From Candidatus Iainarchaeum sp. (GTDB lineage: Archaea > Iainarchaeota > Iainarchaeia > Iainarchaeales > JAZDEL01): a stretch of DNA of 32,000 nucleotides. The notes beneath the pieces are model-generated. The model did not search any database and was not told where the DNA came from. It was given only the letters and a program-made list of their open reading frames with translations. Shown here one piece after another: positions 6,201-30,771 of the stretch. The stretch lies in NCBI GenBank assembly GCA_043808785.1, contig JAZDEL010000002.1, forward strand, positions 210,001 through 242,000. Reading direction: 5' to 3'. Positions within the stretch are counted from its first letter, which is position 1, and every line of letters begins with the position of its first letter. The position numbers were made by a program, and so were the translations under genes.

Positions 6201-6210
6201 TTTATAAATA
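6201..6210. promoter_or_regulatory. TATA box (TTTATAAATA)
   Basis: Centred about 29 nt upstream of ATG 6234. Confidence 0.4.
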
Positions 6211-6233
6211 ACCTGAGCATTTCTCTTCACAGT

Positions 6234-9212: not shown

Positions 9213-9258
9213 AAAATCAACCAAACGGTTGATTTTTATTCAACCAAAGGTATTTATT
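9213..9258 (+). promoter_or_regulatory. Triple half-site palindrome plus TATA cassette, copy 1 (faces the + strand)
   Basis: AAAATCAACCAAACGGTTGATTTTTATTCAACCAAAGGTATTTATT. The TATA ends 24 nt before ATG 9283. Confidence 0.6.
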
Positions 9259-14252: not shown

Positions 14253-14271
14253 CTAATCTGGGTGGCAGCAC

Positions 14272-15408
14272 ATGGACATTCAGGACAAGGTTGTGCGGTT
14301 TTATGTCCAGAATTATGTAATGCCCCGTGCCCTTATTTTCAATAAGCCTGGTTTTGTCGATTTTAAAATATCGGGGAAAACGAATATTTTTGCGAGGCAA
14401 TTGCTGGTCCCCGAATCGTTTTTTGCCAATCTTGAAAAGGAATTGGTGGATTCCTTCGGGGAAAAAGGGAAGAAGGTAATGTATTCCCTCGGGAAACGGT
14501 TCGGCTACAGGTTTGCCCAGCTTGGTCGGTTTGAAAATATTTCTGACCATCCCGGAGACGCAGTGAAGCAATGGGTGACCATTGCAAGCAAGTTTGTCGA
14601 AGGGACCTATGCGTCCGAGATTTCGCAGGATGCCGACATCAAAACCAAAACCGTCAATTACTTTCTGAGGAATTTCGCGGTCTGCAGGGTTCTGGGGTAC
14701 GACTATTTTTTGGCGACCGGCGGCGCGGCGGGTGTCATAGCCTGGATATTGCAGGAGCCGAAAATAGAGGGTCGCCTGTACGACAGCAAATTCGAGGGCA
14801 CCGAGCACACATGCAGGGTCAAATGCGCGGTTCCCGAAATACTGTCCCGCGATTTTTCGTCAGAAGTTTTTACCGAAACCAATCTCGGCGACCTTAAGCC
14901 CGACTTCAATAATTACATGAAATTCAATGAAGAGGTAAAAATACGGTACACAAAATCATTCCAGAGTTTTCTCGATTCCAATGTTTTCAAGTACAGCCGC
15001 GGGATAATAACATACGGCTCCGAAAGGTTTTTCCTGATGGAAGTGAGCGCCACATACCTGCTCGAGCTGTCGATGCCGGATAAGAAGATGAAAGAGAAAA
15101 TATTTCAGACCGCCTTTTCAACAGGCAAGAATTTGTTTCCGTCTTTGGGCGCTAATGACCTGCAAAGTCTGGTCGAAATGCTTTCCGCCCTCGGCTGGGG
15201 GGAGGTAGTTGCGCTGCCAGGCCCCAAGAAACAAGTAATTATAAACCATTTCCCGTGGACTAAATTTTATAAGGATATTGACTATTTAATGATAGGGGGG
15301 CTGTTAAGCGGCATAGTCAGCCATGTTTTTGGCAAAAATATACGGTTTGGAAAACCCTCCATAGACCTTTCGCACGGGCACCTTGCATTGATTTTCTCAG
15401 AGAGTTGA
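14272..15408 (+). CDS. Protein with two V4R-like halves, function unknown
   Basis: The first half has GKRFGYRFAQ ... NFAVCRVLGYDYFLATGGAAGVIAWIL ... HTCRVKCA. The second half has LVEMLSALGWGEVV ... MIGGLLSGIVSHVFG. Both resemble V4R topology by eye only. Confidence 0.4.
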   Translation: MDIQDKVVRFYVQNYVMPRALIFNKPGFVDFKISGKTNIFARQLLVPESFFANLEKELVDSFGEKGKKVMYSLGKRFGYRFAQLGRFENISDHPGDAVKQWVTIASKFVEGTYASEISQDADIKTKTVNYFLRNFAVCRVLGYDYFLATGGAAGVIAWILQEPKIEGRLYDSKFEGTEHTCRVKCAVPEILSRDFSSEVFTETNLGDLKPDFNNYMKFNEEVKIRYTKSFQSFLDSNVFKYSRGIITYGSERFFLMEVSATYLLELSMPDKKMKEKIFQTAFSTGKNLFPSLGANDLQSLVEMLSALGWGEVVALPGPKKQVIINHFPWTKFYKDIDYLMIGGLLSGIVSHVFGKNIRFGKPSIDLSHGHLALIFSES

Positions 15409-15413
15409 ATCGG

Positions 15414-16193
15414 ATGAAATTGGGTCATATCGAAAAAGGCATTTATGCGCTCAGGGCGGAGCACCCGTTAGTCATACCCCAGCTTGACCCTGAAAAATAC
15501 GACGAGCACGACCTCCAAACGGTTCTGAAAGAACTTGGCGAAATCGGCGTGTCTCATGTTGCCGTCGGGGGTACCATAGTGGATGCCGCCAAAATGCAGG
15601 CTGTGCTTGATATCGTGGCTAAGGACTTCGGGTTCGTTACGCTGAGCTATATCACGAATAATTCGCTTGGTCTTCTGAACGGCATTAAAGGTAAAACCGC
15701 GGTCTACTGGATGAGCGTATTGAATGCCGAGAACCTTTACTTCCTCAGAGATAACCTGATAATGAATTCGATAGCGATGAGCAAGAAGAATTTCGAACTG
15801 CTCCCTACTGCTTATGTTTTTGATGAACGGGGCTCCTGCAGTTCCTCGAACTGGCTGGCGAGGTCGACCCCTATACCGCGGAACAAGGCCGAACTTAGCC
15901 TTGCCATTGCGCTGGCTGCGCAATATCTGGGCATGCGCTTTTACATAATGGCAGGAGGTTCGGGGGCGCCATATCCCCCACCGGTCGAGCACGTCAAGTT
16001 AATCAGCAAAAAAACGGATTTGTTCCTGATTCCCACAAGCGGAATAAATCAGGTCGGGCAGGCCAAGAGGCTTTTCGCAAATGGCGCCGACGCCATACAT
16101 GTCGGCAAGGCAATTGAACTCAAGAACGGGCTGAAAATGCTGAGGGACATGGTAAAAATCTCTAAAAAGCACGATGGCAAAGAATTCTCATAG
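15414..16193 (+). CDS. Geranylgeranylglyceryl-phosphate synthase / PcrB-family prenyltransferase (divergent)
   Basis: PQLDPEK, GVSHVAVGGT, SVLNAEN, YIMAGGSG, IPTSGIN ... GADAIHVGKAI follow the GGGPS/PcrB TIM-barrel motif order. TSGI replaces the usual GGGI. The TTG 15405 alternative start overlaps the previous stop codon. Confidence 0.6.
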   Translation: MKLGHIEKGIYALRAEHPLVIPQLDPEKYDEHDLQTVLKELGEIGVSHVAVGGTIVDAAKMQAVLDIVAKDFGFVTLSYITNNSLGLLNGIKGKTAVYWMSVLNAENLYFLRDNLIMNSIAMSKKNFELLPTAYVFDERGSCSSSNWLARSTPIPRNKAELSLAIALAAQYLGMRFYIMAGGSGAPYPPPVEHVKLISKKTDLFLIPTSGINQVGQAKRLFANGADAIHVGKAIELKNGLKMLRDMVKISKKHDGKEFS

Positions 16194-16194
16194 C

Positions 16195-16980
16195 ATGAAC
16201 CGTAATTATGAAAAAATTTCGGAAGGAGTTTTAATAAAAAAAGGCCGCTCCTTATCCGATTTAACCCGCAGGCTGGGCGATGCCGAGTACGCCTTCTTCG
16301 ACCTGGACGGAACCATTTACCCCTCCCTCTTTATTCTGGATGTGGCAGATAAGGTTTTTTCCGCGGGGTGCGCCGCTGGCGAAAAAAAGCATATTGAAAA
16401 AAAACGCGCCCTTGATACCCTGGTTTCAGTAAGCAGGCAGTCGGACTTCCGCGAGTTGTATGAAAAGTTCATAGTCCTTCTGGAAGGTGAGAGATGTGAT
16501 ACGTTCTCTTCCTGCGCCAAACAATTTGCAAAAAACCTTTGCCCGGGGGCGAAGGATTTCGTCAGCCTTCTGCACGGCAGGGGCATCAAATGCATCCTTG
16601 TTTCCCTGACTCCCGAGTTTATTGCGGAAATCGTAAAAGCCGAGATTGGTTTTGACGGTTTTTGGAGCATGAAGTACGGCGTTTCCGTTGTTAAAAGCAG
16701 AAAAATGTTTGCAGGCAATTATGTCTTGGATTACCCAAATTTCAGCGATTTTAAAAAAGCGGCATTGGGAAAATACGGCCTTGGCGCCAAAGACAAGGCA
16801 AGAATCATTTTTTCGGGCAATGGTGCCGAGGATTTGGGGCTGTTTGATTCCGCAGGGCTGACAATTGCCGTTAATCCCCACAATGCCCTGCTGAAGCGGA
16901 AAAGTTTCGATATTATTCTTGATGATTTTAAGAACGCACCATGGGCACGCCTAACCGAACTTTTCGGCGGCAGCCCCTGA
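16195..16980 (+). CDS. HAD-superfamily hydrolase (HAD-IB / phosphoserine-phosphatase-like)
   Basis: YAFFDLDGTIY (motif I), VSLTPE, FSGNGAEDLG. ATG 16174 is an alternative start overlapping the previous gene. Confidence 0.6.
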   Translation: MNRNYEKISEGVLIKKGRSLSDLTRRLGDAEYAFFDLDGTIYPSLFILDVADKVFSAGCAAGEKKHIEKKRALDTLVSVSRQSDFRELYEKFIVLLEGERCDTFSSCAKQFAKNLCPGAKDFVSLLHGRGIKCILVSLTPEFIAEIVKAEIGFDGFWSMKYGVSVVKSRKMFAGNYVLDYPNFSDFKKAALGKYGLGAKDKARIIFSGNGAEDLGLFDSAGLTIAVNPHNALLKRKSFDIILDDFKNAPWARLTELFGGSP

Positions 16981-17451: not shown

Positions 17452-17496
17452 TTAATATAGGTTTGGTTGAATAAAAATCAACCATTTGGTTGATTT
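17452..17496 (-). promoter_or_regulatory. Triple half-site palindrome plus TATA cassette, copy 2 (faces the minus strand)
   Basis: The + strand reads TTAATATAGGTTTGGTTGAATAAAAATCAACCATTTGGTTGATTT. Its reverse complement aligns with copy 1. Confidence 0.6.
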
Positions 17497-17563: not shown

Positions 17564-18214
17564 ATGTTCAGGCTCGTGATTTTCGACCTTGACGGCACGC
17601 TTGCCGACACCAAGGAGGGGATTGCCAAAACATTCAACAAGGTACTTGCCGAGCGCGGAATTCCTGCTGTGCCTGCGGAGCGGATTTACAACACCGTGGG
17701 CTTGAGCGTGGAGGAGCTTTTTGATGAACTGGTGGAAAGCGGGAGGCGCGGCAGGGCGGAAATGGTTAATAGGTATCTTGAGATTTACAAGGAGGATGCG
17801 CTTGGAAAGGGCAGGCTATTCCCGGGCGCAAAGGAAGCCCTGTTTGCATTAAAGCGCGCGGGATTGACACTTGCGATTGCAACAGGCAAGAGGCACGAAA
17901 GCGCGGAACTTATGCTGGAAAAGCTGGGAATAAGGAAACTCTTTGCCGCGGTTGTCGCGGTTGATGACGTGGAGAACGGCAAGCCCGCACCGGACATCGC
18001 GGAAAGGGTGCTTGAACTTACGGGAATGCGAAAGGAGGATGCACTGATAGTAGGGGATACTGTCCACGATATCGAGATGGGAAAAAGCGCGGGCATAAAA
18101 ACCTGCGCCGTGACCTATGGCGTGCATTCAAGGGCGGCGCTTGAAAAGGCGGAACCTGATTTTATGGCGGATAAAGCGGGGGAGATAATAACAATAGCAG
18201 GATGCGGGAAATGA
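17564..18214 (+). CDS. HAD-IA phosphatase (phosphoglycolate phosphatase-like)
   Basis: VIFDLDGTLADT, ATGK, VGDTVHDIEMGKSAG. The TATA CATATAAAC lies about 27 nt upstream of the ATG. Confidence 0.8.
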   Translation: MFRLVIFDLDGTLADTKEGIAKTFNKVLAERGIPAVPAERIYNTVGLSVEELFDELVESGRRGRAEMVNRYLEIYKEDALGKGRLFPGAKEALFALKRAGLTLAIATGKRHESAELMLEKLGIRKLFAAVVAVDDVENGKPAPDIAERVLELTGMRKEDALIVGDTVHDIEMGKSAGIKTCAVTYGVHSRAALEKAEPDFMADKAGEIITIAGCGK

Positions 18215-18239
18215 AAAATCAACCGTTTTGTTGATTTTT
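18214..18239. terminator. Degenerate palindrome copy between convergent genes (A5-stem-T5; possible bidirectional terminator)
   Basis: AAAAATCAACC-GTTT-TGTTGATTTTT has one stem mismatch and lacks the third half-site and the TATA. It lies between the HAD stop (18214) and the glyA stop (18251). Confidence 0.35.
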
Positions 18240-19521: not shown

Positions 19522-21231
19522 TCAGTCAACTCTCTTTTTTATCAGATAATCACCCATGGCAAGGTAATCTATATCGGTTTTTAAGAAGGTATTTAGTGCG
19601 TCTTGAGGGGAACACACAATAGGTTCCTGATTATTGAACGAAGTATTTAGCAATAGCGGCACCCCGGTTAACTCCCTAAACTCTTGTATTAATTTGTGAT
19701 ACTTGGGATTTATTTTCTTAGAAACAACCTGTATTCTGCTCGTGCCGTCTTTGTGGACAACTGCAGGGATGTTGTTGCGAAGCGCAGGATAGGTAATTAG
19801 CATCATCTGTCCAGGTTCTTTTGCCTCGGCATTTTTTGGGATGCCAAACCAATTTTCCGCTTCTTCCTCCAGCACGCTGGGGGCAAACGGCCTGAACTCT
19901 TCCCTGTGTTTAATTTTCATATTTATAATATCTTTCATATCAGCACGCCTAGGGTCTGCCAGAAGGGAACGGTTCCCAAGGGCTCTGGGGCCGATTTCCA
20001 TCCTCCCCTGGAACCACCCGACAATTTGGCCATTGCTTAATATCTTAGCGGTTTCCCGCTCAATGTTTTCAATTTTTGCGTATGTGACTTTTTTTTCTTT
20101 ACCCAATACTTTCCAAATCTCCGCATTAGAGAACTTCGGACCGAGGTAAGGGCTGCGCATGTGAAATCTCTTTTTGTTTTTTAACAAAATATTCCAAATG
20201 TAAAGGGCAGACCCTATGGCGGTGCCAGCGTCATTCGCTGCAGGTTGGATGTAGATTCTCTTAAATCCGCTCTCCGATTGAATCCTAAAATTTGCCAAGC
20301 AATTTAATGCCACCCCCCCACCGAGGCAAAGGTTTTCGCTATTTGTTTCCTCCTTCAAGAATTCACACATATGGAGCATGATTTCTTCGGTAGCTTTTTG
20401 GAGTGAACTGGCAATATCGGCATGCCTCCCCCCTATTTCGCCATTTTTGCCCCTTCTTTTTATCCCAAACAATCTTTTGAGTTCACCATAATCCTCTGTC
20501 CTGAACTTCAATATGTCATTATTTACTGCAAAGTGCCCCCTTTCACCTTTTGTTATTATTTGGTCGAATTCCTCTTTGCAGGTGGGGGAACCATATGCCG
20601 ACAACCCCATTACCTTGTACACGTCATATTCGGAAAAACCAAGGAATTTCGAGAGTTTCTCCCACAAAAAACCCAGCGAATTTGGGTAGCATATCTCAGC
20701 TAGCCCCTCAATTTCGTTTCCCCTTCCCCTGCCAAGATAAGAAGTGGTATTTTCCCCTATGCCATCTACCGAAAGTATAGCTGATTCCGCAAACGGAGAC
20801 GGCAAATAAGCCGAAGCAGCATGGCAGAGGTGGTGCTCTAGCCAAATAAATTTCTTGCTTATGCCTGAGCCGGCTAAGTGGCTTAAGTTCCCTGGCACCT
20901 GAACAATTTTTTTGTAAAACAATTCCTCGCCTGCTTGGTTCCCCCAACCCACAGTTTCAAGTTTATCACACATCCTCATCTTGTCAAGCCTTTTTTCGGG
21001 CAACAAAGAGTAGCCAATGTAATCGACATCCCTCAACTTCATCTTCGCCTCGCTCAAGCAAAATGAAATTGCATCCAGGGGAAGCATGTCGGGATTATCT
21101 ACTCTGGATTCCTTTGAATGTTTTATTCTGTTGAATCTTTCTTCTTCAGCCGCCGCTACTATTTCGCCATCTTTGACAAGGCATGCCGCCAGTTCATGGT
21201 AGGGGCCATTTATACCAAGGATTGCAGTCAT
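19522..21231 (-). CDS. NodU/CmcH-family carbamoyltransferase
   Basis: MTAILGINGPYHELAACLVKDGEIVAAAEEERFNRIKH ... LCLGGGVALNCLAN ... IQPAANDAGTAIGSAL ... LGNRSLLADPR ... LLNTSFN. A GGAGGTGA SD lies 5 nt before ATG 21231. Confidence 0.85.
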   Translation of the reverse strand: MTAILGINGPYHELAACLVKDGEIVAAAEEERFNRIKHSKESRVDNPDMLPLDAISFCLSEAKMKLRDVDYIGYSLLPEKRLDKMRMCDKLETVGWGNQAGEELFYKKIVQVPGNLSHLAGSGISKKFIWLEHHLCHAASAYLPSPFAESAILSVDGIGENTTSYLGRGRGNEIEGLAEICYPNSLGFLWEKLSKFLGFSEYDVYKVMGLSAYGSPTCKEEFDQIITKGERGHFAVNNDILKFRTEDYGELKRLFGIKRRGKNGEIGGRHADIASSLQKATEEIMLHMCEFLKEETNSENLCLGGGVALNCLANFRIQSESGFKRIYIQPAANDAGTAIGSALYIWNILLKNKKRFHMRSPYLGPKFSNAEIWKVLGKEKKVTYAKIENIERETAKILSNGQIVGWFQGRMEIGPRALGNRSLLADPRRADMKDIINMKIKHREEFRPFAPSVLEEEAENWFGIPKNAEAKEPGQMMLITYPALRNNIPAVVHKDGTSRIQVVSKKINPKYHKLIQEFRELTGVPLLLNTSFNNQEPIVCSPQDALNTFLKTDIDYLAMGDYLIKKRVD

Positions 21232-21293
21232 GCTATCACCTCCTCGCAACAACATTTCATATGTGGGTCATTTTCATTTGGCGCAGCGCCAGC

Positions 21294-22298
21294 TTACATG
21301 TTTATTACATCTACAACTTCCCTTAGCCAGCCCGACCTGCAACTGCAGTTGAGGCTGTATAATTCTTCCGCACTCTGCGTTTCATTAAATCTCTCGATAG
21401 CGCTGCAAAGTTTTTCCCTGCATTTTTCACAGCTACCTGTGAGTCTGTCCTTTGAAAGATTCTCGTCGCTGAGGCCCACGAAAATGCAACCCCTGCCAGC
21501 AAGCCTTTTCACAACCTCTATGACTGACCAGAGATTTGGCACTTTGTATTCGTTCCTGAAGTATAATTGCTCTATGGGGGCGTTCTCTGGAATGAATACT
21601 GGCTCAAGTGACACCCTTGCATTAACCCCCTGCCTCTTCGCAGTATCAAAAATAAAGTTTGCTGAGTTAACTGCATCAAGGATTGCATACTTCTCGCTCA
21701 CATAAGGGGGCTTTATCAGGATATATGCCATAAAGTCCAGCCCAGTCTCTGCACACAGCCCAAGGCAGTTTTCAAGGGCATTTCTTGAAAGCCCTTTTTT
21801 TATTATCGAATTCCTTATGTAGTCGTCCGAACTTTCAAGGCCTATGCTGAATTCCAGGATTTTGTCCCCCAACAATTCCTTGCTCTTTTGCAGTTTTTCC
21901 TTCGTCACGTATTCTGCCCGTGATTCAATGACTACTTTTTTTATTCGCGGCAACCTTGAAATCTCTCTCATTGCAAAATCCCTGAACTCAGGGGAAATCT
22001 CGCGGTCGTTGTAAAAAGAGCCGAGCGTGAGCAAATCGAGCTGATTTATGTTCTTGTCTTCGGAAAGTACCCCTTCGATGGCCCACCATAGCTGTGCCTT
22101 CATTTCATCATCGCTGACATTCTTGCACGAACTATTTTTGAAGCCACACATTGTGCAGCCCCCACCGGGGGATTTTGCATATTCGCAGCCGTTAGTCCTA
22201 AGGACAAGCATCAATCGCCTTCCCTTTATGCCATTTATGTTTACCTGCGTAACTCTCCAGAATGCTGGCTCAATCTTTTTTGATTGACTCATAGGCAT
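21294..22298 (-). CDS. Radical-SAM-like Fe-S oxidoreductase with non-canonical Cys spacing (resembles the archaeal TIGR01210/RaSEA-type family)
   Basis: RTNGCEYAKSPGGGCTMCGF (C-x9-C-x2-C), a TIM-barrel-like body, and a C-terminal Cys cluster CEKCREKLC ... CSC. The family assignment is from memory of motif style, not from a search. Confidence 0.5.
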   Translation of the reverse strand: MPMSQSKKIEPAFWRVTQVNINGIKGRRLMLVLRTNGCEYAKSPGGGCTMCGFKNSSCKNVSDDEMKAQLWWAIEGVLSEDKNINQLDLLTLGSFYNDREISPEFRDFAMREISRLPRIKKVVIESRAEYVTKEKLQKSKELLGDKILEFSIGLESSDDYIRNSIIKKGLSRNALENCLGLCAETGLDFMAYILIKPPYVSEKYAILDAVNSANFIFDTAKRQGVNARVSLEPVFIPENAPIEQLYFRNEYKVPNLWSVIEVVKRLAGRGCIFVGLSDENLSKDRLTGSCEKCREKLCSAIERFNETQSAEELYSLNCSCRSGWLREVVDVINM

Positions 22299-22323
22299 TG
22301 CCTATGGACCCCTGTTTCCTCCC

Positions 22324-22369
22324 TTAATATATCTTCGGTTGAATAAAAATCAACCAAATGGTTGATTTT
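22324..22369 (-). promoter_or_regulatory. Triple half-site palindrome plus TATA cassette, copy 3 (faces the minus strand)
   Basis: TTAATATATCTTCGGTTGAATAAAAATCAACCAAATGGTTGATTTT. The TATA ends 25 nt before ATG 22298. Confidence 0.6.
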
Positions 22370-22378
22370 GTTTGCCGC

Positions 22379-22705
22379 CTAAGGCAGCCCCTCCAGCCTT
22401 GTTTCATTTTCTCCATACGCCCTGCTCAGTTCCGCGCTGAACTTGTGCATGCTTTCAAGCCATTCAGGACTTATCCTGTAATGCCTGCCCCGCTTTTCAA
22501 TTACGCCCGACGAGTGCAGTTTCTTGATTGCCTTGTAAACGCCCTGCTGTGAGACATCCTGCATGTGCCGCTCCCTTATGCGGTTAAGCATGCCTTTTGC
22601 CGAGAGCGGCCACTCGCTCGCGAGCAGCATGATTATCAGTTCCGATATTGTTTTCTCACCCTCACCTGAAAAAGGGAACCTGATTGTTGCGTCCAGAATT
22701 CTCAT
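22379..22705 (-). CDS. Stand-alone wHTH protein: ninth, short paralogue of the tandem-array family (N-terminal module only)
   Basis: ISELIIMLLASEWPLSAKGMLNRIRERHMQDVSQQGVYKAIKKLHSSGVIEKRGRHYRISPEWL matches the array N-terminal signature (xxWPLSAKxI ... YxAxxK ... G ... Y ... W). Confidence 0.6.
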   Translation of the reverse strand: MRILDATIRFPFSGEGEKTISELIIMLLASEWPLSAKGMLNRIRERHMQDVSQQGVYKAIKKLHSSGVIEKRGRHYRISPEWLESMHKFSAELSRAYGENETRLEGLP

Positions 22706-22728
22706 CAGTTAATAGGGCTTTTCGGGAA

Positions 22729-22773
22729 TTAATATATCTTCGGTTGAAAATTAATCAACCAAATGGTTGATTT
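22729..22773 (-). promoter_or_regulatory. Triple half-site palindrome plus TATA cassette, copy 4 (faces the minus strand)
   Basis: TTAATATATCTTCGGTTGAAAATTAATCAACCAAATGGTTGATTT. The TATA ends 23 nt before ATG 22705. Confidence 0.6.
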
Positions 22774-22804
22774 CCCATTCCGCGGAAAAAGCAGTGCGCA
22801 GGCG

Positions 22805-23284
22805 CTAAATCCTGATAATTTTGTTCACAAGGGCGCCGAGGATTTTGTTTATGTCCTTTGTTTCTATTTCAATTGTCTTTTCGGGCGGACCGAGGGAATA
22901 GATGAACTTCTCATGCATGAATATCCCGGAATCAACAATTATCCCAATCTCCTTCCCGAACCCGAAAGGGATTGCGCAGTACGGCTCGCAGCCTGTCTTT
23001 TCCTTCAGTTCCTCCTGCCCTGCCACGGAAACCTTTGAGCCGAGCAGTTCCTTCAGTTTTTCAAAATCCGCGCGCTTTCCCTCAATTGTCACAAGCATGA
23101 AATACCCGCCGCCCTTTGCCTTGAGGAAGAGGTTCTTGCTTTCTACTCCCGTAAGCCCGAACTTTTGCCTGACCTTTGCCGCTGCCTCATAACTCAGCAC
23201 AGGTTCGTGCGTGCATTCCCTGAAATTTATGTTCAGGCTTTTGAGGAGTTTGATGTTTGCATCATAGAGTGTTTGCAGGTTCAT
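22805..23284 (-). CDS. YbaK/ProX-type aminoacyl-tRNA trans-editing (deacylase) domain protein
   Basis: About 159 aa. VESKNLFLKAKGGGYFMLVTIEGKRADFEKL ... GCEPYCAIPFGF ... IIVD is the YbaK/ProRS-associated-domain pattern. ATG 23284 lies 4 nt after the stop of the last array gene. Confidence 0.7.
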   Translation of the reverse strand: MNLQTLYDANIKLLKSLNINFRECTHEPVLSYEAAAKVRQKFGLTGVESKNLFLKAKGGGYFMLVTIEGKRADFEKLKELLGSKVSVAGQEELKEKTGCEPYCAIPFGFGKEIGIIVDSGIFMHEKFIYSLGPPEKTIEIETKDINKILGALVNKIIRI

Positions 23285-23288
23285 GGTT

Positions 23289-24110
23289 TCATCTCTTGAA
23301 ATAAGCAAATGTCTGCTTCCTGATTTCCTCCGCAATATGCGAATCCTGATAAACCACTACCTTAACTTTTGCTTCCTTTTCGAATATTTCCTCGAAAAGT
23401 TTGTCAACCTTAAGTTCGTCAAGCTTCTTTATTTTCCCATATATTTCATCCCAGCGCTTTTTTATTTCAAAGGAATAGTGGATTTCAACAACAGTATCGC
23501 CGATAACAAGCAAATCAATTGTCGCGGCAACATCTGCGCCGGTTATCTGCCTCACACCCTGCCTGCGCCAGAATTCCGCGCACCATTCATCAACAATGGT
23601 ATCGCCGCGGCAGAGAGAATAGAACTCAAAGTTCTCTGCAAGTTTCGCTATCTGCGCATATTCCTCCCGTGAAACAAAGAGTGGAGTGTAAAGGTGGCAC
23701 CAGTGCAGGCAGACAACAGGCTTTTTGCCATCTACTGCCTGCATTTTCATCAATTTCACAAAAAGCCTGTCTGTTTCGTTTACCGAATCTAAAACAAAAA
23801 CCTTGCCATGCAGTGCTGTTTCCTTCGGGCCATTTTCGTACGAAGATTCCAAGTTGCCGGATATTGCCTTTAACTGCTTTATCCAATCACGATTGAGTTG
23901 GTAGCCGCCATCTTGTTTTTCCATTATGCTGTCCTCTTCCATTTGCTGCAGAGTTTTGTGCACAGCCTGATAAGAAACCCCGCCGTTCATGCGGTTTATT
24001 TCCGAGTGAATCTGCTTCACGCTCAGTGGCCAGCGCTCGGAGAGCAAATTGATTACCTCGTCACGCGTGGATTTTGGCTTTGAACTGGGCAGGGTTATTG
24101 CCTGAGCCAT
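23289..24110 (-). CDS. Array paralogue 8 (type D1): wHTH plus uncharacterised C-terminal domain
   Basis: STRDEVINLLSERWPLSVKQIHSEI ... VSYQAVHKTL ... DWIKQL; KKPVVCLHWCHLYTP; YSLCRGDTIVDEW; VIGDTVV; the C-terminus ends DSHIAEEIRKQTFAYF. A GGAGGTG SD precedes ATG 24110. Confidence 0.7.
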   Translation of the reverse strand: MAQAITLPSSKPKSTRDEVINLLSERWPLSVKQIHSEINRMNGGVSYQAVHKTLQQMEEDSIMEKQDGGYQLNRDWIKQLKAISGNLESSYENGPKETALHGKVFVLDSVNETDRLFVKLMKMQAVDGKKPVVCLHWCHLYTPLFVSREEYAQIAKLAENFEFYSLCRGDTIVDEWCAEFWRRQGVRQITGADVAATIDLLVIGDTVVEIHYSFEIKKRWDEIYGKIKKLDELKVDKLFEEIFEKEAKVKVVVYQDSHIAEEIRKQTFAYFKR

Positions 24111-24975
24111 TTTTTCCACCTCCGAAATGTGCCAAAACCTGATTCCTGAGAACCGAAGCCATGTGCGGGTTTTTTGATATTTTTACGTCTATTTGGACCT
24201 TATTCTTCTTAATCGCATTCTTCAGGAAATATTCATTAAATAAGTCAAGCAGATTTGAGTTCCTGCCGTAAATTTCATCAATGAACTCCCTGCTTTCTTC
24301 GGAATATTTTATTTCATAAATGCCGTCTCCTTGAACTATTGTGTCGCCCTCCATGCTCCCAAGAGGCACGCCTGTTTTAAGGCCGCCGAAGCCTCCAGCA
24401 TAGTACTGTTTTGTTATCCACTTGTCCAGCGGGGAATTGTTCTCCACAAGTGCATATGTGGAATCTTGGGCGGCAACCATCCTCCTGAACAGTTCATAAT
24501 CCAGAAAGTTGAACCTCATGGGCCAGAGCAGGTGCCTGAATAATCCAGTGCCAATGTTGGGGCCGTTGCCGACTGCGACCTTCCTCCTCAACTGCTCGGC
24601 AGTTGAAACCACAAAAATGCTGTAATCGTTGTAAGTCAGATGCACCTCTCCCTTGAAATTCGGGTCAACATCGTATTTGCTGCCGTTTTTGAAATATGCC
24701 TCCTTCAGCCCGTCGGAGAAATTGCCGAGGTTTGTTATCCATGTTTCGCTTAGTTGATAATTCCTGTCCTGCTGCGTTATAACGCCAGCTTCCGCAAGTT
24801 CTGACATGTTCTTGTGTACAGCCTGATAGCTGACTTCCAGCGCGTACTCTCTCTTAATTTGAGTGCAGGCTTCCCTGGCAGTCAGCGGCCACTTTCTGGA
24901 GAGGATTGCAACAATCGCATCCTTTGTCGAGGCAGGCTTGCCCCAAGCGTTGAGCATTGTGAGGTTTATTGGCAT
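24061..24975 (-). CDS. Array paralogue 7 (type A1)
   Basis: STKDAIVAILSRKWPLTAREA ... VSYQAVHKNM ... TWITNL; GNGPNIGTGLFRHLLWPMRFNF; VQGD. The C-terminus is about 20 aa longer than A2 and overlaps the next gene by 50 nt. An AAGGAGG SD is present. Confidence 0.7.
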   Translation of the reverse strand: MPINLTMLNAWGKPASTKDAIVAILSRKWPLTAREACTQIKREYALEVSYQAVHKNMSELAEAGVITQQDRNYQLSETWITNLGNFSDGLKEAYFKNGSKYDVDPNFKGEVHLTYNDYSIFVVSTAEQLRRKVAVGNGPNIGTGLFRHLLWPMRFNFLDYELFRRMVAAQDSTYALVENNSPLDKWITKQYYAGGFGGLKTGVPLGSMEGDTIVQGDGIYEIKYSEESREFIDEIYGRNSNLLDLFNEYFLKNAIKKNKVQIDVKISKNPHMASVLRNQVLAHFGGGKNGSGNNPAQFKAKIHA

Positions 24976-25808
24976 TATTTCGCCTCCTTAAAAAGTGCAA
25001 TTGTCTCTTCTCTTATCTGGTCTGTAACCTCGGGGTCACGGTGGATGTCTATTCTGAATTTTTCAGTTTTTCCCTTGAACAGCCTCCCAAACAGTTTCCC
25101 GAGTTTAAGTTGTGCGAATGTTCTGGCTATTGTGCTTATTCTGTACCAGTCCCTTTTCAGGCGTGCGGGTAAATAAACATAGCCGACATAATCCCCATAG
25201 ACAACGACCTCGGGACTGAACGACGACTCCACGCCCAGTTTTATCTTTGCCCCCAAATCAGCATAGTTGCTTGCAATCATCCTGTCAACTGCAGTGTTGT
25301 TTCTTGCAACCAGATAGAATTTTGTCCTCTTTATGTTTTTCCTTGCCTGGATGTAATCCTCCTCTGAGAAGGGGAAAGTCGGCCATGCGCTCCACCATCT
25401 GCATACCCCGGGCTTGTTTTTTGGGTTTGGAGCATTGTGAAAGCGGTATACTATAAATCTGGAAAAATCTGAAAGGCAGTCAAAACTGAGGCTCGCGCTT
25501 TCTTTTTCCCAGATGTTGTCAAAATTGTTCTTCCCGTTATTGAGGTAAGCATCTTCCAGCCCTGTGCTGAATTTCTTAAGGTTTTTTATCCAGTCGATGC
25601 CTAACGAGTATTTTTTATCCGCAAGCGAGAGCATGCCTTCTTCTTCCATCTGGCTTAGCAGCTTATGTACTGCCTGATAGGATATTTCCGAACTATGCTG
25701 GCGCATCAGGCGCCCGTGGATTTCCTTTGCTGAGAGCGGGAACTCTTTGGCAAGAATCGAAACAACAACTTCTTTTGTCGACCCGCCGGTGCCGTTAAAG
25801 TTCATCAT
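24975..25808 (-). CDS. Array paralogue 6 (type B1)
   Basis: STKEVVVSILAKEFPLSAKEIHGRL ... ISYQAVHKLL ... DWIKNL; NPKNKPGVCRWWSAWP; YLVARNNTAVDRM; YGDYVGYVY; PEVTDQIREETIALF. Confidence 0.7.
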   Translation of the reverse strand: MMNFNGTGGSTKEVVVSILAKEFPLSAKEIHGRLMRQHSSEISYQAVHKLLSQMEEEGMLSLADKKYSLGIDWIKNLKKFSTGLEDAYLNNGKNNFDNIWEKESASLSFDCLSDFSRFIVYRFHNAPNPKNKPGVCRWWSAWPTFPFSEEDYIQARKNIKRTKFYLVARNNTAVDRMIASNYADLGAKIKLGVESSFSPEVVVYGDYVGYVYLPARLKRDWYRISTIARTFAQLKLGKLFGRLFKGKTEKFRIDIHRDPEVTDQIREETIALFKEAK

Positions 25809-26671
25809 GGTGCCTCCCTGTAAATCTGTATCAGCCGCCCGCGCGTCAGTTCCGCGAGTTCCCTGTTTTTTGTGAATGTTACATCAACACTTGCCTTTTG
25901 CTTTGACAGCTTTTGGCTAACAAATTCCTTAAACAGGCTTGATATGCCATCTATTCTTTCATAAACATCATCAATCAGTTTCTTTGTTTCATCAGAAAGC
26001 CTGCATTGGGTTATGGTATCGCCCTGCACCAAGATGTCATCTGCTATATCCTTAACCTCGCCGATTATTTTTGTATTTGGGACGCCCGCCCTTATGTATT
26101 GTTTCCTTATCCACCTGTCAAAAGGAGTGTCCTTTTGCAGCATCGCATAATTGTCAAGCCCGTTTCTTGCCATTCTTGCGAGCAGGCTGAAATCCATAAA
26201 CTTGAAGTTCAGTGGAAACCAGCCATGCCTCAGAATTGCTATGCCGTGTTTTGGCCCGGAACCTACCAGAACATTGCTGGCCATTATTTCCGCCATTCTT
26301 ACATAGAAAATGCTCAAATCGCTGAAATGCATCCTTATGGGCTCCTTGAAATCGGGCTTTATGGCATATTTCCCGCCGTTTTCGGAGCATGTGTTTTTCA
26401 GGTTGCCGAAGAATTCGTGCGATTGTGAAATCCAATCTTTGTTCAACTCAAAATTATTTCCGGTTTTGCATATGATGTTGCCTTCCTCAAGCTGCGCCAG
26501 CGTCTTGTGGACTGCCTGATAGCTGACATTCATGCCGCGCTCCCTCTCCAAGGAATTGCAAATCTCGCGCGCAGTGAGGGGCCATCTTTCGGACAGGATG
26601 GAAATAACCGCGTCTTTGGTGGAGGTTTCTTTTGTGGTGAAATTTGGAATAGTGACTGTTATCGGCATCAT
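25805..26671 (-). CDS. Array paralogue 5 (type A2)
   Basis: STKDAVISILSERWPLTAREICNSL ... VSYQAVHKTL ... DWISQS; GSGPKHGIAILRHGWFPLNFKF; VQGD. ATGA overlaps at both ends. Confidence 0.7.
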   Translation of the reverse strand: MMPITVTIPNFTTKETSTKDAVISILSERWPLTAREICNSLERERGMNVSYQAVHKTLAQLEEGNIICKTGNNFELNKDWISQSHEFFGNLKNTCSENGGKYAIKPDFKEPIRMHFSDLSIFYVRMAEIMASNVLVGSGPKHGIAILRHGWFPLNFKFMDFSLLARMARNGLDNYAMLQKDTPFDRWIRKQYIRAGVPNTKIIGEVKDIADDILVQGDTITQCRLSDETKKLIDDVYERIDGISSLFKEFVSQKLSKQKASVDVTFTKNRELAELTRGRLIQIYREAP

Positions 26672-27504
26672 TTCACCCCCTTGAAATGCTCAAGCGCCTG
26701 CTTCCTTATCTGGTCCGCGAGCCCCGGGTTCCTGTAAGTTACAACATTAATTTTCCCGCAGTTGTTGTGCATAAAGTCAAACCATGCCTTCAGGTCGAAC
26801 TGGTTGATTTTTTTCACATTATTTGCGCTTGACAGCCAGCCGTTCATGAGTACGGGGGGCCAGTGGACCTCCGCAAAGTAATCCCCGTTTATTAGGGTAT
26901 CAAAGCTGTCTATAGAATCGACACCAAGCTTCATCTTGAAGCCGACTTTGCCAAGTATCTGGCCAAATAGCCGGTCAAGTATTGTGTTGCCCTTTACCAG
27001 CGCGTAATATGGGGTGTTAATGCAGGCATCCAAAAGTATTTTCATGTCCTTTTCCGAAAGGCCGATTAGCGGATATGAGCGCCTTGCGAGGATTATCCCC
27101 GGCTTCTTATCGGGGTTGAGCTTTTGGTTGTGCAGATACGGGATGAGAAATTCTGCAAGCCTTATTGGCGAGTCAAATGTCATGTTCGCATGTTCGAACA
27201 TTTGCAGTTCCTCTGCGACTTTTCTCTCTTGATTTAGGTATGCCTCGGCAAGGTTGGCGCTGAACTTCTCGACATCCGAAACCCAGCTGCGGCTGAGGCA
27301 GTATTCTTTACCCGCCTTATCCACTATTCCTTCCTGTTCCATCTCCTGCAATATTTTGTGGGCGCCCTGATACGATATTTCCTTGCTATGTTCCCTTGCC
27401 AACCTTGCATGTATGCTTTTGCCCGTAAGCGGAAACTCCCTGCCGAGCAATTGGATTATGCATTCCTTCGTGTTCTGGCTGTTTGAAAGGAGGACGGTTT
27501 TCAT
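26668..27504 (-). CDS. Array paralogue 4 (type B2)
   Basis: NTKECIIQLLGREFPLTGKSIHARL ... ISYQGAHKIL ... SWVSDV; NPDKKPGIILARRSYP; YALVKGNTILDRL; NGDYFAEVH; NPGLADQIRKQALEHF. Confidence 0.7.
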   Translation of the reverse strand: MKTVLLSNSQNTKECIIQLLGREFPLTGKSIHARLAREHSKEISYQGAHKILQEMEQEGIVDKAGKEYCLSRSWVSDVEKFSANLAEAYLNQERKVAEELQMFEHANMTFDSPIRLAEFLIPYLHNQKLNPDKKPGIILARRSYPLIGLSEKDMKILLDACINTPYYALVKGNTILDRLFGQILGKVGFKMKLGVDSIDSFDTLINGDYFAEVHWPPVLMNGWLSSANNVKKINQFDLKAWFDFMHNNCGKINVVTYRNPGLADQIRKQALEHFKGVK

Positions 27505-28331
27505 TTCATCGCCCCCCTGAAATGCTCCATCGTCTGCCTGCGTATCTGCTCCGCAACCGCGGAATTTTTTATAATAACCAGATTCACGTCAACATTAGTT
27601 TCAAATGTTAACTTATACAATTCCGAAGGGTTAACCGCCCTCACCTTTTCTATCTGTTTGCAGAGTTTGTCCCATTCCTTTACAGCCTCGCCGAAATAGA
27701 TATAGCTGATGTAATCCCCGCCGACCATTACGTCGTGGTCAAATCTGAATTCATGGCTTACCTTTACCTTGCAGCCAAATTGCTTGAACGACTCGATTGA
27801 CATTCTGTCTATGAGATTATCGAAACCTGTCAGGGCGTATGCGCCCTTTTCGCTTATGAACTTTTTTGTAGCCGCATATTCCTCCTCCGACACGGTAATT
27901 ATCGGCCACATGTGGCGCCAGTGCATGACCTTCGGGCATTTATGCTGGCCGGGATATTTAAAGATATAATTCACTACGAATTTCCCCATGGACATCATAG
28001 ATGGAAATGTGAGGTTTACAATGTCTCTTTTCGCCAGTTCCGCAAGATTGTATTTTTCGTCCAGATATGCCGCACCGAATTCCTTTACCCCGTTTACCCA
28101 TTCAGGGTTCAGCACGTATTCCATGCCCTCCTTTTTCAGCACGCCGTCATCCGCCGCCTGCACAACGGCCTTATGCATCGCCTGATACGTCCCCTCAAAA
28201 GCGTGTTCGCGCTTTACGGCATTGTAAATTTCCTTTATCGTAAGGGGCTTTTTCTCCAGAAGCAAGGAGATAATCTTGTCCCTCGTTGATTTGAGGTTCG
28301 GGTTCGGGAAAATGCTGTCTGTGCGCGTCAT
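27501..28331 (-). CDS. Array paralogue 3 (type C1)
   Basis: STRDKIISLLLEKKPLTIKEIYNAV ... GTYQAMHKAV ... EWVNGV; KCPKVMHWRHMWP; YALTGFDNLIDRM; GGDYISYIYFGEAVKEW; NSAVAEQIRRQTMEHF. Confidence 0.7.
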   Translation of the reverse strand: MTRTDSIFPNPNLKSTRDKIISLLLEKKPLTIKEIYNAVKREHAFEGTYQAMHKAVVQAADDGVLKKEGMEYVLNPEWVNGVKEFGAAYLDEKYNLAELAKRDIVNLTFPSMMSMGKFVVNYIFKYPGQHKCPKVMHWRHMWPIITVSEEEYAATKKFISEKGAYALTGFDNLIDRMSIESFKQFGCKVKVSHEFRFDHDVMVGGDYISYIYFGEAVKEWDKLCKQIEKVRAVNPSELYKLTFETNVDVNLVIIKNSAVAEQIRRQTMEHFRGAMK

Positions 28332-29170
28332 TTTTTGTTCACCCCAAACTCCGCAAGGGTGCGCCTGCGTATCTCCTCCGCAACCTTCGCATTCTTCACA
28401 ACCACCACATTCACCTCAATCTCGCTTTCAAGCATGACCTTGTAGAATTCAACCAAATCGATATCCTCCGCGGTTTTTATTTTGCCGCAGATATCGTCCC
28501 ACAATTTAACCGCATCCCCGAAATAGATGTAAGCCACATAATCGCCGTAAACCATGACATCCGGGTCGAACCTGAACACAGGGTTCACCTTTATTTTGCA
28601 GTTATATTTCTTGAACGCCTCCGTAGAAAGGTTGTCGAGAGGGTTGTCGAAACATGTCAGGGTATATCCGCCAAACTTCTCGCAGAACTCCTTCGTTGTC
28701 ACGTATTCTTCTTTTGACAGGGTAATTAATGGCCACATGTGCCTCCAGTGTATTATCATGGGCTGATTTTTTGGGTTCGGGTAACGAGTGTAATAATTTA
28801 TTATAAACCTTGCCATCGATATAAGGTATTTGAAAGTGATGTTGGCAACATCCTTTTCCACGAGCTCGGCAAGGTTGTATTCCTTTTTCAGGTATGTTGA
28901 TTCCAAGTCTGCTCCGTAGTTTTTGATGGAACTTATCCAGTGCTCGCTCAGCATGTAGCCTTTTCCGTCGCGTACAACAACACCCTCCGCAAGCGCCTGC
29001 ATAATCGCCTTATGCGCTGCTTGGTATGTGCCCTCAAAACCGTGCTCCCTACTCAAGCGTCCGCATATTTCCTTTGCGTTCATGGGCCACTTTTCCGAGA
29101 GCAATGATATGATTGAATCGCGCGTTGATTTTGTGCCGCCGTTTATTTTAGGGATTGAAACGGTTTGCAT
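28328..29170 (-). CDS. Array paralogue 2 (type C2)
   Basis: STRDSIISLLSEKWPMNAKEICGRL ... GTYQAAHKAI ... HWISSI; NQPMIIHWRHMWP; YTLTCFDNPLDNL; YGDYVAYIYFGDAVKLW; NAKVAEEIRRRTLAEF. Confidence 0.7.
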   Translation of the reverse strand: MQTVSIPKINGGTKSTRDSIISLLSEKWPMNAKEICGRLSREHGFEGTYQAAHKAIMQALAEGVVVRDGKGYMLSEHWISSIKNYGADLESTYLKKEYNLAELVEKDVANITFKYLISMARFIINYYTRYPNPKNQPMIIHWRHMWPLITLSKEEYVTTKEFCEKFGGYTLTCFDNPLDNLSTEAFKKYNCKIKVNPVFRFDPDVMVYGDYVAYIYFGDAVKLWDDICGKIKTAEDIDLVEFYKVMLESEIEVNVVVVKNAKVAEEIRRRTLAEFGVNKK

Positions 29171-30022
29171 TTATTTCACCCCCTTCCTTTCGTATGCCGC
29201 CTTTGCCTCGCGCCTGAACTTTTCCGCGAGTGCGGGGTTTTTGACTATGAGCGCGTGCACATCAACTTTCGGCTTTAGCACTGTGTCAAAGTATTCATTC
29301 ATGTCAATGTCGTCCGCGCACTTTATTTTTTTGTAGAGCGCATCCATACTATTCTTAAATTCAGGCGGAACGAAAACAAACATTATGAAATCGCCCTGTA
29401 TAAAGGTGTCGTTACCGGCAGAATAGTTGTAGCCGGTTACACACTTCTTTCCGAGCCTGCTGACGTAATCGGAACACCAGCGGTCCATAAATGTATCGTT
29501 TCTGCAGAGCCCGTAATGGAGCTCCTGGGCAAATAGTTTCTTGAGGTTTTCGTGCTCCTCGTTGGTTGCACCAATTATTGAATAAGCATGCTCCCATATG
29601 CAGATGCAGTTCTTTTTCTCAGGGTTAGGAAATTTCATGGAGTATTCGTTCACCAGCCATTTCGTGAACTCGAGAAAATTGTCGAATTTCAGGTGCGCGC
29701 TCCCCTCGAAATTGTTCGGGTCGATTTTGTTTCCGTTCCCGCTGTAGTTTGAATCAAGGTCGCTCCCCATCTGCTTTACCTTTCCTATCCACTCCCTGCT
29801 CAGCGCGTAACCTTTCCCCTCGCGCGAAAGCACGCCCTCCTGCAGCGCCTGTGAAACAGCCTTGTGCACCGCCTGGTAAGTTCCCTCGAATGCGTATGTG
29901 CGCTTCAGGCGGGAAAAAATTTCCTTCGTACCCAAAGGCCACTCCGAACCCAGGAGTGAAACAACCAGTTCCCTTGTGCCCCTGCCGTTCGCAACTGGCA
30001 GAGGCAGAGTCAGTTCGCTCAT
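29171..30022 (-). CDS. Array paralogue 1 (type D2), first gene of the operon
   Basis: GTRELVVSLLGSEWPLGTKEIFSRL ... GTYQAVHKAV ... EWIGKV; NPEKKNCICIWEHAYS; YGLCRNDTFMDRW; IQGDFIMFVF; NPALAEKFRREAKAAY. There is no SD before ATG 30022, unlike all internal genes. Confidence 0.7.
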   Translation of the reverse strand: MSELTLPLPVANGRGTRELVVSLLGSEWPLGTKEIFSRLKRTYAFEGTYQAVHKAVSQALQEGVLSREGKGYALSREWIGKVKQMGSDLDSNYSGNGNKIDPNNFEGSAHLKFDNFLEFTKWLVNEYSMKFPNPEKKNCICIWEHAYSIIGATNEEHENLKKLFAQELHYGLCRNDTFMDRWCSDYVSRLGKKCVTGYNYSAGNDTFIQGDFIMFVFVPPEFKNSMDALYKKIKCADDIDMNEYFDTVLKPKVDVHALIVKNPALAEKFRREAKAAYERKGVK

Positions 30023-30103
30023 CTTGGCACTAACTATATTTATCTGCAGGGAAATGGTTATAAAGTAAATTTTTTTGGCAAGAATGGATAAATACTTAAC
30101 TTT

Positions 30104-30154
30104 TTAATGGTTTTTGTGCATAATTGGTTTAAAAAATAACCAAAAAACCATTAA
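30104..30154. promoter_or_regulatory. 12-nt inverted repeat (TTAATGGTTTTT ... AAAAACCATTAA) in the divergent promoter region
   Basis: Perfect 12-nt arms at 30104-30115 and 30143-30154 enclose a nested GGTT-TAAAAAAT-AACC (30126-30141). A further AAATGGTTA lies at 30052-30060. Confidence 0.45.
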
Positions 30155-30194
30155 TTTGGAGATTATTTAGCCGAGGAAAGCAGGGTTATGTAGT

Positions 30195-30286
30195 AAGTTT
30201 TTGCACGGGCACAGGAATTTTTTGCACCGGGTGCGGCAATTTTTTGCGCAGGAAGGCTGAAAGCCGGGCACGGTAATTTTTTTCAC
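30195..30286 (+). promoter_or_regulatory. Phased direct repeats (AATTTTTTGCAC-type) upstream of the Lrp/AsnC gene
   Basis: AAGTTTTTGCAC (30195), AATTTTTTGCAC (30216), AATTTTTTGCGC (30238) and AATTTTTTTCAC (30275), with start-to-start spacing of 21, 22 and 37 nt. The first two units also share GGGCACAGGAA / GGGTGCGGCAA tails. Confidence 0.45.
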
Positions 30287-30300
30287 AGGGGGATGCGGGA

Positions 30301-30771
30301 ATGAACAAAAACACCGCTGTACAGCTGGATGAAGCGGACATAAAAATCCTGAACGCGATGCTCGCAATGCGCGAGACTGGCTACACTGCGATAGGGAAAA
30401 ATCTCGGCCTCACCCCGGCGGCGGTGCAGAAGCGCGTGAAGAGGATGCGTGCGCGCGGAATTTTCCTCGGCACCGTGCCCGTGCTCGACCTTGCGAAAAT
30501 CGGCTACGGCCTTACCGCAATAATAAAGGTCTCGGTTTCGCAGGGAAAGCTTGTGGAGGAGGCGCAGCGCTGGACCCAAAAGCGCAACACATGCTCGGTT
30601 TACAGGATTACCGGGGATTACGACATCATAGTGATAGGCAAGTTCAAGGACATGGACGAGCTGAACGACTTCACCACGGAGATGAACAGGGAGGGCTGGG
30701 TTACAAAAACAAACACGAGCCTGACCTTCCAGATTGCGCAGGAATCCGTGAACCCGAAGGTTATTTACTGA
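30301..30771 (+). CDS. lrp: Lrp/AsnC-family transcriptional regulator
   Basis: LDEADIKILNAMLAMRETGYTAIGKNLGLTPAAVQKRVKRMRARGI (HTH) followed by an RAM/ACT-like domain (AIIKVSV ... VYRITGDYDIIVIGKFKDMDELNDF). Confidence 0.85.
   Translation: MNKNTAVQLDEADIKILNAMLAMRETGYTAIGKNLGLTPAAVQKRVKRMRARGIFLGTVPVLDLAKIGYGLTAIIKVSVSQGKLVEEAQRWTQKRNTCSVYRITGDYDIIVIGKFKDMDELNDFTTEMNREGWVTKTNTSLTFQIAQESVNPKVIY

Follow-up and report, generated by a model that had tools for sequence, protein, structure and literature searches.

Eight coupled paralogues with a predicted TrmBL2-like architecture in a DPANN archaeon, and a candidate palindromic operator of their family

The locus described here raises the question why an archaeon of the DPANN group, whose members to our knowledge have minimal genomes and almost no characterised regulators, carries eight consecutive genes that are homologous to one another over their full length. 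The genes occupy positions 23289-30022 on the minus strand of a 32,000-nt stretch of DNA (hereafter the window) from Candidatus Iainarchaeum sp. (GCA_043808785.1, contig JAZDEL010000002.1, positions 210,001-242,000, forward strand). Our answer, in which we place a confidence a little above even, is that they encode co-expressed TrmBL2-like regulators that share one operator specificity and have diverged in their sensor or oligomerisation domains. Proteins of this kind are known from the TrmB/TrmBL2-type one-component regulators; new are a DNA-reading head common to the whole family and a candidate palindromic operator.

An earlier reading of the window, made from the DNA sequence without database searches (hereafter the sequence-only reading), had described the eight genes as homologous paralogues, and both the open reading frames (ORFs) and an end-to-end alignment bear this out. 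In order of transcription they are W1 (29171-30022, 283 aa), W2 (28328-29170, 280 aa), W3 (27501-28331, 276 aa), W4 (26668-27504, 278 aa), W5 (25805-26671, 288 aa), W6 (24975-25808, 277 aa), W7 (24061-24975, 304 aa) and W8 (23289-24110, 273 aa). For W8 the longest ORF begins at GTG 24119, a start that is equally possible as ATG 24110. Pairwise identities range from 21 to 50% (mean 28%) and are higher in the N-terminal ~95 residues (39%) than in the C-terminal domain (C-domain; 23%). The homology is beyond chance, since BLASTP comparisons between paralogues reach ~120-300 bits. W3 is 50% identical to W2, the nearest paralogue of W4 is W6 (34%), and W5 and W7 form a 'type A' with a GxGP...RH motif, while W1 and W8 each represent a subfamily of their own by alignment and orthogroup (W1-type, W8-type). 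The sequence of W1 matches P0001 at 100% identity; P0001 is called a 'hypothetical protein' in a metagenome-assembled genome of a Candidatus Diapherotrites archaeon (Iainarchaeia, DPANN). A short ninth paralogue, W9s (22379-22705, minus strand, 108 aa), consists of the N-terminal part and the following helix without a C-domain.

The genes are tightly packed. Stop and start codons meet without a gap in TAAATG, overlap as ATGA at four junctions and by 1 nt in TAATG, and at the remaining junction the 3' end of W7 runs 50 nt into W8. G-rich, Shine-Dalgarno-like motifs (GGGGGTGA, GGAGG, GGGAGG and similar) precede genes 2 to 8, and inspection of the start regions revealed none before W1; junctions and motifs are thus as the sequence-only reading described them. 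A simple scan, which is not decisive, found a single run of six or more T inside the array. Together, the eight genes are likely a single translationally coupled operon. This operon probably includes an abutting gene for a YbaK/aminoacyl-tRNA-editing-domain protein (22805-23284, minus strand; PF04073, E 2.8e-17). The W8 stop and the next start are arranged as TGA-AACC-ATG, and the gene most likely starts at this ATG (23284), 4 nt after the W8 stop, which makes it the probable ninth cistron.

The architecture of the proteins was approached by modelling W2 with AlphaFold2 (AF2) from an alignment of 48 sequences. The C-domain was also modelled separately, and both models were searched with Foldseek against the PDB. 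Mean confidence (pLDDT) was 88.6 for the full-length model and 92.7 for the C-domain alone. At its N-terminus the model shows a canonical winged helix-turn-helix (wHTH; residues 16-74), as anticipated from the sequence, with helices at 16-26 and 32-43, the recognition helix at 49-61 and the wing at 65-74. A 19-residue amphipathic helix (76-94) with a hydrophobic stripe of W78, I79, F85, L89 and Y93 follows, and the remainder is an alpha/beta domain (~106-275). Across 189 family sequences, the stripe residues W78, F85 and Y93 are conserved in 96%, 71% and 81%, respectively. The five best matches of the full-length model were all TrmBL2 (5bpd/5bpi/5box; E 1.6e-8, probability 1.0, ~290 columns), followed by MITD1, FAM83A, Zucchini, Nuc, PPK and PLD3, all of the phospholipase D (PLD) fold. 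The C-domain model likewise matched the TrmBL2 C-domain best (E 1.2e-4, TMq 0.46), then MITD1, Zucchini, NucT, PPK, F13 and Nuc, the last with the top TM-score (TMq 0.53, TMt 0.62), and all of its top 15 matches have the PLD alpha/beta fold. By predicted structure, the whole protein is therefore a wHTH, a long helix and a PLD-like domain in the domain order of TrmBL2.

Sequence comparison alone would not have led to this assignment. Scans of the nine paralogues against Pfam, NCBIfam and PADLOC gave only sub-threshold matches, mostly to generic wHTH models (FUR, HTH_12, Penicillinase_R), and a sequence-profile search of the PDB returned nothing significant and no TrmB chain. The statement that the C-domain cannot be placed in any named family consequently stands for sequence profiles and falls for predicted structure. 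The sequence-only reading had also held that a confident match of this domain to a known family such as TrmB, with such arrays already described, would overturn it. A match of that kind appeared in the structural search and was absent at the sequence level, and a literature search found no paper on the family, its arrays or the palindrome described below.

The signature motifs read from the window recur throughout the family. The C-domain landmarks H144, D179, G209-D210, K259-N260, A264 and R268 are conserved in 61-91% of the 189 members; among the polar ones, H144 is kept in 77%, D179 in 89% and D210 in 83%, position 259 is K in 61% and R in 23%, and position 260 is N in 77% and D in 15%. The domain is not a PD-(D/E)xK nuclease, in agreement with the sequence-only reading. 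The conservation table of the 189 sequences contains no H-x-K pair and lacks the catalytic HxK(x)4D...GSxN motif of PLD enzymes. Its conserved hairpin reads DxxVxGD, and the positions where the catalytic H and K would fall, aligned by reasoning and not by superposition, are not conserved. Because this motif is absent, the C-domain is most likely non-catalytic, like those of TrmB/TrmBL2, MITD1 and FAM83.

Conservation is very strong at the start of the recognition helix. In the same 189 sequences, which are otherwise ~25-30% identical, S/T at position 48 is followed by Y49 (99%), Q50 (99%), A51 (94%), V52 (79%), H53 (95%) and K54 (99%). Positions 1, 2, 5 and 6 of this helix, here Y49, Q50, H53 and K54, face the major groove in wHTH proteins. 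All of W1-W8 keep the (S/T)YQAVHK reading head, and W9s, with SQQGVYK, is the only copy in the window that differs. As the base-contacting residues are unchanged, W1-W8 would be expected to read the same operator. A diversification of targets appears unlikely, because it would predict variation at exactly these positions. TrmB contacts DNA through Y50/D51 (PMC4158304).

A k-mer enrichment analysis of 104 upstream regions of family genes yielded a candidate for this operator. Two strongly enriched k-mers, TCAACCAA and GGTTTAAA, resolve into the palindrome TCAACC-(A/T)4-GGTTGA, whose end lies 26-77 nt before the ATG of family genes and whose right half merges in many lineages into a TATA-like GGTTTAAAA. 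Counting copies with at most one mismatch within 130 nt upstream, we found the motif before 28 of 92 family genes that head a transcription unit (including 1 of 7 partial-length genes) and before 29 of 744 other unit-heading genes (odds ratio 10.8, p 3e-14). It precedes 12 of 21 unit-heading relatives that consist of the N-domain only and 15 of 64 unit-heading full-length genes, compared with 1 of 67 internal full-length array genes. The latter difference is, like the gene junctions, consistent with the claim that an array forms one polycistronic unit. From centre to centre, 10 bp separate the two half-sites, and this spacing of one helical turn fits a dimer on one face of the DNA contacting adjacent major grooves, a mode reviewed for TrmB (PMC4158304). 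Family proteins are likely to bind TCAACC-N4-GGTTGA, as judged from its co-occurrence with family genes, the conservation of the reading head and the fact that autoregulation is common. Since the palindrome lies just upstream of the TATA box or is fused to it, it may act in autorepression by blocking TBP/TFB. Covariation between operator variants (TCAACT, TAAACC) and variants of the recognition helix was sought, but both are too conserved to be informative.

The wHTH also occurs outside the family as defined by its C-domain. In five loci from Nanoarchaeota and Methanosarcinales bins (L063, L067, L069, L070 and L073), proteins of ~266-280 aa combine a SYQAVHK wHTH, preceded by the upstream element TCAACCAAAAGGTTTAAAA, with C-terminal regions that do not match the family C-domain profile. 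In two Woesearchaeota loci (L068, L078), the same wHTH and upstream element belong to a stand-alone protein of ~101 aa. The pair of wHTH and operator thus seems to be wider than the PLD-like family.

In the window itself, four perfect palindromes are present where 0.002 are expected, and the five copies found at up to two mismatches were reached in none of 100 shuffles. One perfect copy of TCAACCAAATGGTTGA (22755-22770), a predicted operator of the family, lies 50 nt upstream of the W9s ATG. A second (22350-22365) lies 52 nt upstream of a RaSEA-like radical-SAM gene (21294-22298, minus strand; TIGR01210 207.5 bits, cut-off 212), which is followed by a carbamoyltransferase gene. TCAACCATTTGGTTGA (17478-17493) is located 71 nt upstream of a HAD phosphatase gene (17564-18214, plus strand; HAD_2 E 9e-48), and TCAACCAAACGGTTGA (9217-9232) 51 nt upstream of a gene (9283-10704, plus strand) for a secreted, Cys-rich protein of 473 aa with GNI/GV-type repeats resembling a beta-helix, for which neither Pfam nor NCBIfam gave a match. 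The orthologue of this last gene in the locus of the closest relative (L001, 105-2009) is 49% identical, has an internal duplication and carries the same perfect palindrome upstream; the conservation of a perfect copy before both orthologues represents a phylogenetic footprint. A copy with one mismatch, TCAACCGTTTTGTTGA (18219-18234), is not in a promoter position but where the HAD and SHMT genes converge, between their 3' ends.

The promoter region of the array (30023-30200, minus strand) is itself unusually conserved. Over ~180 nt, window and L001 are ~95% identical, whereas the encoded proteins are just 72-80% identical. Within it are an inverted repeat, TTAATGGTTTTT-N27-AAAAACCATTAA (30104-30154), and, ~40 nt upstream of the ATG, the TATA-like sequence TTTATAA. 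A search for TTAATGGTTTTT elsewhere found it solely in this promoter and its L001 homologue, and as it is unique to these two, it defines no regulon. A gene for an Lrp/AsnC-family regulator (30301-30771, plus strand; PF01037, PF13404) diverges from the array, and the layout is the same in L001. Just upstream of its start, at 30192-30292, are three to four direct repeats of the form CGGGCACRGKAATTTTTTKCAC with a period of 21-22 nt and one gap of 37 nt, which are absent from the otherwise ~95% identical L001 region and may be Lrp binding sites.

Family arrays are not restricted to this genome. An exhaustive profile search recovered 2460 representative clusters (50% identity) with E≤1e-3, 692 of them with E≤1e-30. 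When one genome of each GTDB species was scanned for the peptide pattern [VIL]SYQAVHKx[LIV], 75 distinct loci emerged. Nearly all loci with an informative label belong to DPANN (Iainarchaeia/Diapherotrites, Micrarchaeota, Aenigmatarchaeota, Nanoarchaeota, Woesearchaeota, Pacearchaeota). Many of the remainder bear just the label 'archaeon', and a few Methanosarcinales bins and one Falkowbacteria bin may be mis-binned. In 79 non-duplicate loci we recorded how many full-length members follow one another on the same strand; the maximum is one gene in 29, two in 14, three in 4, four in 3, five in 5 and eight in 1, the array of the window. Tandem arrays are therefore a trait of the family, and the eight-gene array is the largest among these loci.

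Individual copies have orthologues in the closest relative (W2/L001_1, 80% identical; W5/L001_3, 73%; W8/L001_5, 72%; W9s/L001_7, 66%), and arrays in other DPANN genomes again contain members of the W1-type, W2/W3-type, type A (W5/W7) and W8-type subfamilies. This recurrence indicates that the duplications are old, and together with the low identity among the copies it supports the proposal that they are retained, ancient duplicates. The first array gene of L001 (2722-3639, L001_1) combines the promoter and first codons of W1 with a body 80% identical to W2, which suggests that it arose by unequal recombination (deletion or fusion) between paralogues. The arrays are dynamic, with copies gained and lost among close relatives. 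Furthermore, some relatives, 445-644 aa long, carry two or three C-domains in tandem behind a single wHTH. P0065 joins a W1-type to a W8-type C-domain, and in most fusions the last C-domain is of the W8-type.

We compared the fetched flanks of 33 loci with at least two full-length members with those of 23 loci containing N-domain relatives alone. A KaiC-like ATPase is present in the flanks of 24 of the 33 multi-member loci and a V4R or XylR_N-like protein in 20. At least one of KaiC-like ATPase, V4R, GGR-like or UbiA occurs in 29 of 33, compared with 6 of 23 N-domain-only loci, where GGR-like denotes a pooled class that also takes in XylR_N/V4R-like proteins. A singleton with two fused C-domains adjoins two UbiA genes, a V4R-like protein, a KaiC-like ATPase and a polyprenyl synthase, and one family relative is fused to a HAD domain. 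In the window, a plus-strand cluster 7-9 kb from the array encodes a KaiC-like ATPase (13524-14252), a XylR_N/V4R-like protein (14272-15408; 378 aa, weak XylR_N match, grouping with V4R-like proteins of other loci), a GGGP synthase (PcrB, 15405-16193) and a HAD-IB hydrolase (16174-16980). This hints at a link of the family to isoprenoid-lipid genes or phosphorylated metabolites and to KaiC-type signalling, part of which is possibly inherited synteny. The gene kinds of the 13524-16980 cluster recur beside family arrays in other DPANN phyla. The YbaK-like gene was seen in the flanks of family loci elsewhere only in the closest relative.

Some further genes of the window can be named. Downstream of the array, 19522-23284 (minus strand) is a tRNA-related run of the YbaK-like editing domain, the RaSEA-like archaeosine radical-SAM protein and a NodU/CmcH-type carbamoyltransferase. 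Between the secreted-protein gene and the KaiC cluster, 11360-12668 (minus strand) holds a type IV toxin-antitoxin pair, whose toxin is an AbiEii protein (PF08843, E 3e-28) and whose antitoxin is weakly AbiEi-like. The region 3644-7463 encodes a RibBA fusion (DHBP synthase and GTP cyclohydrolase II), a PHP-domain protein and a V4R protein; V4R, PHP_C and DHBP synthase genes also lie together at the right end of locus L002, which suggests synteny within Iainarchaeia.

Taken together, we propose that the operon's products are paralogous regulators that bind DNA and belong to a large, unannotated family specific to DPANN. Each protein would consist of a wHTH, an amphipathic helix of the dimerising kind seen in TrmB/TrmBL2 and a catalytically dead PLD-fold domain. 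All copies would read one operator as dimers, likely the 16-bp palindrome, and their binding would repress family promoters through occlusion of TBP/TFB. The predicted regulon in the window would comprise W9s, the RaSEA-like radical-SAM gene, the HAD phosphatase and the secreted repeat protein. As the paralogues differ mainly in the PLD-like domain, this domain is a putative effector-binding and/or oligomerisation module. The array may thus supply up to eight differently tuned subunits that form homo- and probably mixed oligomers and converge on one set of operators. The sequence-only reading had considered a coordinated battery of sensors; since all copies keep their DNA-reading residues, such a putative battery is a better fit than a set of transcription factors that act independently on targets of their own. 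The other possibility it named, a hetero-oligomeric assembly, draws indirect backing from the relatives with several fused C-domains.

Several observations weigh against this proposal. The structural matches have modest TM-scores in Foldseek, 0.33 with the full-length model and 0.44-0.62 with the domain model, and membership of the TrmB family by sequence was rejected. None of 48 members matches PF01978 or PF11495 (PF01978 even at E≤1; the closest approach is W9s, with a PF01978 match of E 0.027 below the cut-off), and the family profile, compared by hhalign with TrmBL2 and with a TrmBL2-like profile of 24 sequences, reached probabilities below 1%. Relatives of TrmBL2 do carry PF01978 and PF11495, one of them with PLDc_2, and the wHTH of the family is by sequence weakly Fur/BlaI-like. 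With no sequence-level link to TrmB/TrmBL2, the shared architecture could be convergent. Regarding the operator, only ~30% of unit-heading family genes have the motif at up to one mismatch, the palindrome could be bound by another factor, and the loci are phylogenetically non-independent, so that fewer independent events lie behind the statistics than the counts suggest. No canonical palindrome stands ahead of the eight-gene array itself. The different inverted repeat found there and the divergent Lrp/AsnC gene leave room for the operon being under other control, possibly by Lrp. Finally, the sensor or effector role of the C-domain is a putative one, and heteromers are not obligatory: singletons occur often, in 29 loci, and no copy of the array lacks a part.

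These last two points would equally suit a set of independent one-component regulators, each a homodimer or homotetramer with its own ligand, that arose by repeated tandem duplication and unequal recombination and make no contact among paralogues. Every copy does keep its wHTH, helix and C-domain, and the varying array content among close relatives, with L001_1 as a W1/W2 recombinant-like gene, points to ongoing birth and death. Nevertheless, we regard this explanation as the less likely one: the fusion of two or three C-domains of different subfamilies argues for joint action of these domains, the dimerisation-helix residues W78, F85 and Y93 are common to all copies and present no obvious bar to mixing, and translational coupling favours co-assembly. 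PLD-fold units typically function as dimers or as internal tandem pairs. The fusions suggest that C-domains of different subfamilies pair, which makes mixed oligomers plausible, and we see such mixing among the paralogues as possible, if short of probable. The fullest form of this idea, in which eight subunits with identical reading heads and different PLD-fold sensors form mixed dimers or tetramers on one operator and so make up a combinatorial transcription-factor system, can be put forward only tentatively.

Two other explanations follow from the structural matches. The proteins could be TrmBL2-like chromatin proteins that coat DNA largely non-specifically and structure the nucleoid, with the paralogues as variant subunits. 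TrmBL2, the best structural match of the models, is a tetramer that assembles into filaments on DNA and, in addition, represses some promoters (PMC4877046; PMC4158304), and an invariant reading head would be compatible with generic DNA contacts, too. We nevertheless judge this improbable, as a specific 16-bp palindrome strongly tied to family promoters speaks for sequence-specific operator binding, and nucleoid proteins are usually products of single, highly expressed genes, not of eight divergent copies. That the C-domain is an active PLD-superfamily enzyme tethered to DNA (a nuclease, phosphodiesterase or phospholipid-modifying enzyme, for example in defence or DNA processing) is the least credible of all and would come as a considerable surprise. 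The fold, the matches to Nuc, NucT, Zucchini and PLD3 and the conserved polar residues H144, D179, D210, K259 and N260 would be in line with it. It is contradicted by the missing HxK(x)4D motif, by the lack of any Pfam PLDc match in 48 members, and by the non-catalytic nature of the best structural neighbours, TrmBL2, MITD1 and FAM83A. PADLOC defence models gave no real match either, only weak hits at the wHTH level, to Csa3 and a CARF-family model, and in W1 a Cas8 hit to the C-terminal region that stayed sub-threshold. Our preference thus remains with co-expressed regulators of one shared operator specificity.

Among characterised systems, TrmBL2 of the Thermococcales (PF0496/TK0471) comes closest to such regulators. 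It consists of an N-terminal HTH domain, a dimerisation helix and a domain at the C-terminus and is devoid of the sugar-binding subdomain of TrmB (PMC4877046). TrmBL2 and the proteins described here have a similar size (264 aa compared with ~280 aa) and the same domain order, a sugar-binding beta-barrel subdomain is missing from both, and a Tyr opens the recognition helix in each. In contrast, there is no detectable sequence homology between them, and TrmBL2 is a single, highly conserved and abundant gene product with largely non-specific DNA binding, whereas the DPANN family forms tandem arrays and multi-C-domain fusions and is tied to a specific palindrome. TrmB and TrmBL1 (Tgr) are one-component regulators as well, in which a coiled-coil-held wHTH dimer sits on a palindromic promoter operator and the C-terminal part responds to the effector (PMC4158304). 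The extra beta-barrel subdomain of TrmB, which makes most of the sugar contacts, is absent from the window models. The MIT_C domain of MITD1, DUF1669 of FAM83 and the HKD enzymes (Nuc, Zucchini, PPK C-domains) share the fold class with the C-terminal ~180 residues, and the pairing of PLD folds in dimers or internal tandems resembles the fusions of two or three C-domains; unlike these proteins, the window domain is joined to a DNA-binding domain and has no HKD motif.

For a large and so far unannotated family, our analysis provides a predicted fold, a near-invariant DNA-reading helix and a candidate operator across several DPANN phyla, and with a single 16-bp site gene regulation in DPANN archaea becomes testable. 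A first predicted regulon includes a secreted repeat protein, which could matter for host contact. The predicted structures further imply that TrmBL2-type architecture reaches well beyond what sequence profiles detect, and the arrays and multi-C-domain fusions offer a natural system in which regulators of the same specificity diversify in their sensing or oligomerisation domains. If the combinatorial system exists, it would allow a DPANN genome of ~1 Mb to integrate many signals at few promoters, as a prokaryotic counterpart of eukaryotic networks of dimerising transcription factors and possibly as the main transcription-factor system of DPANN archaea.

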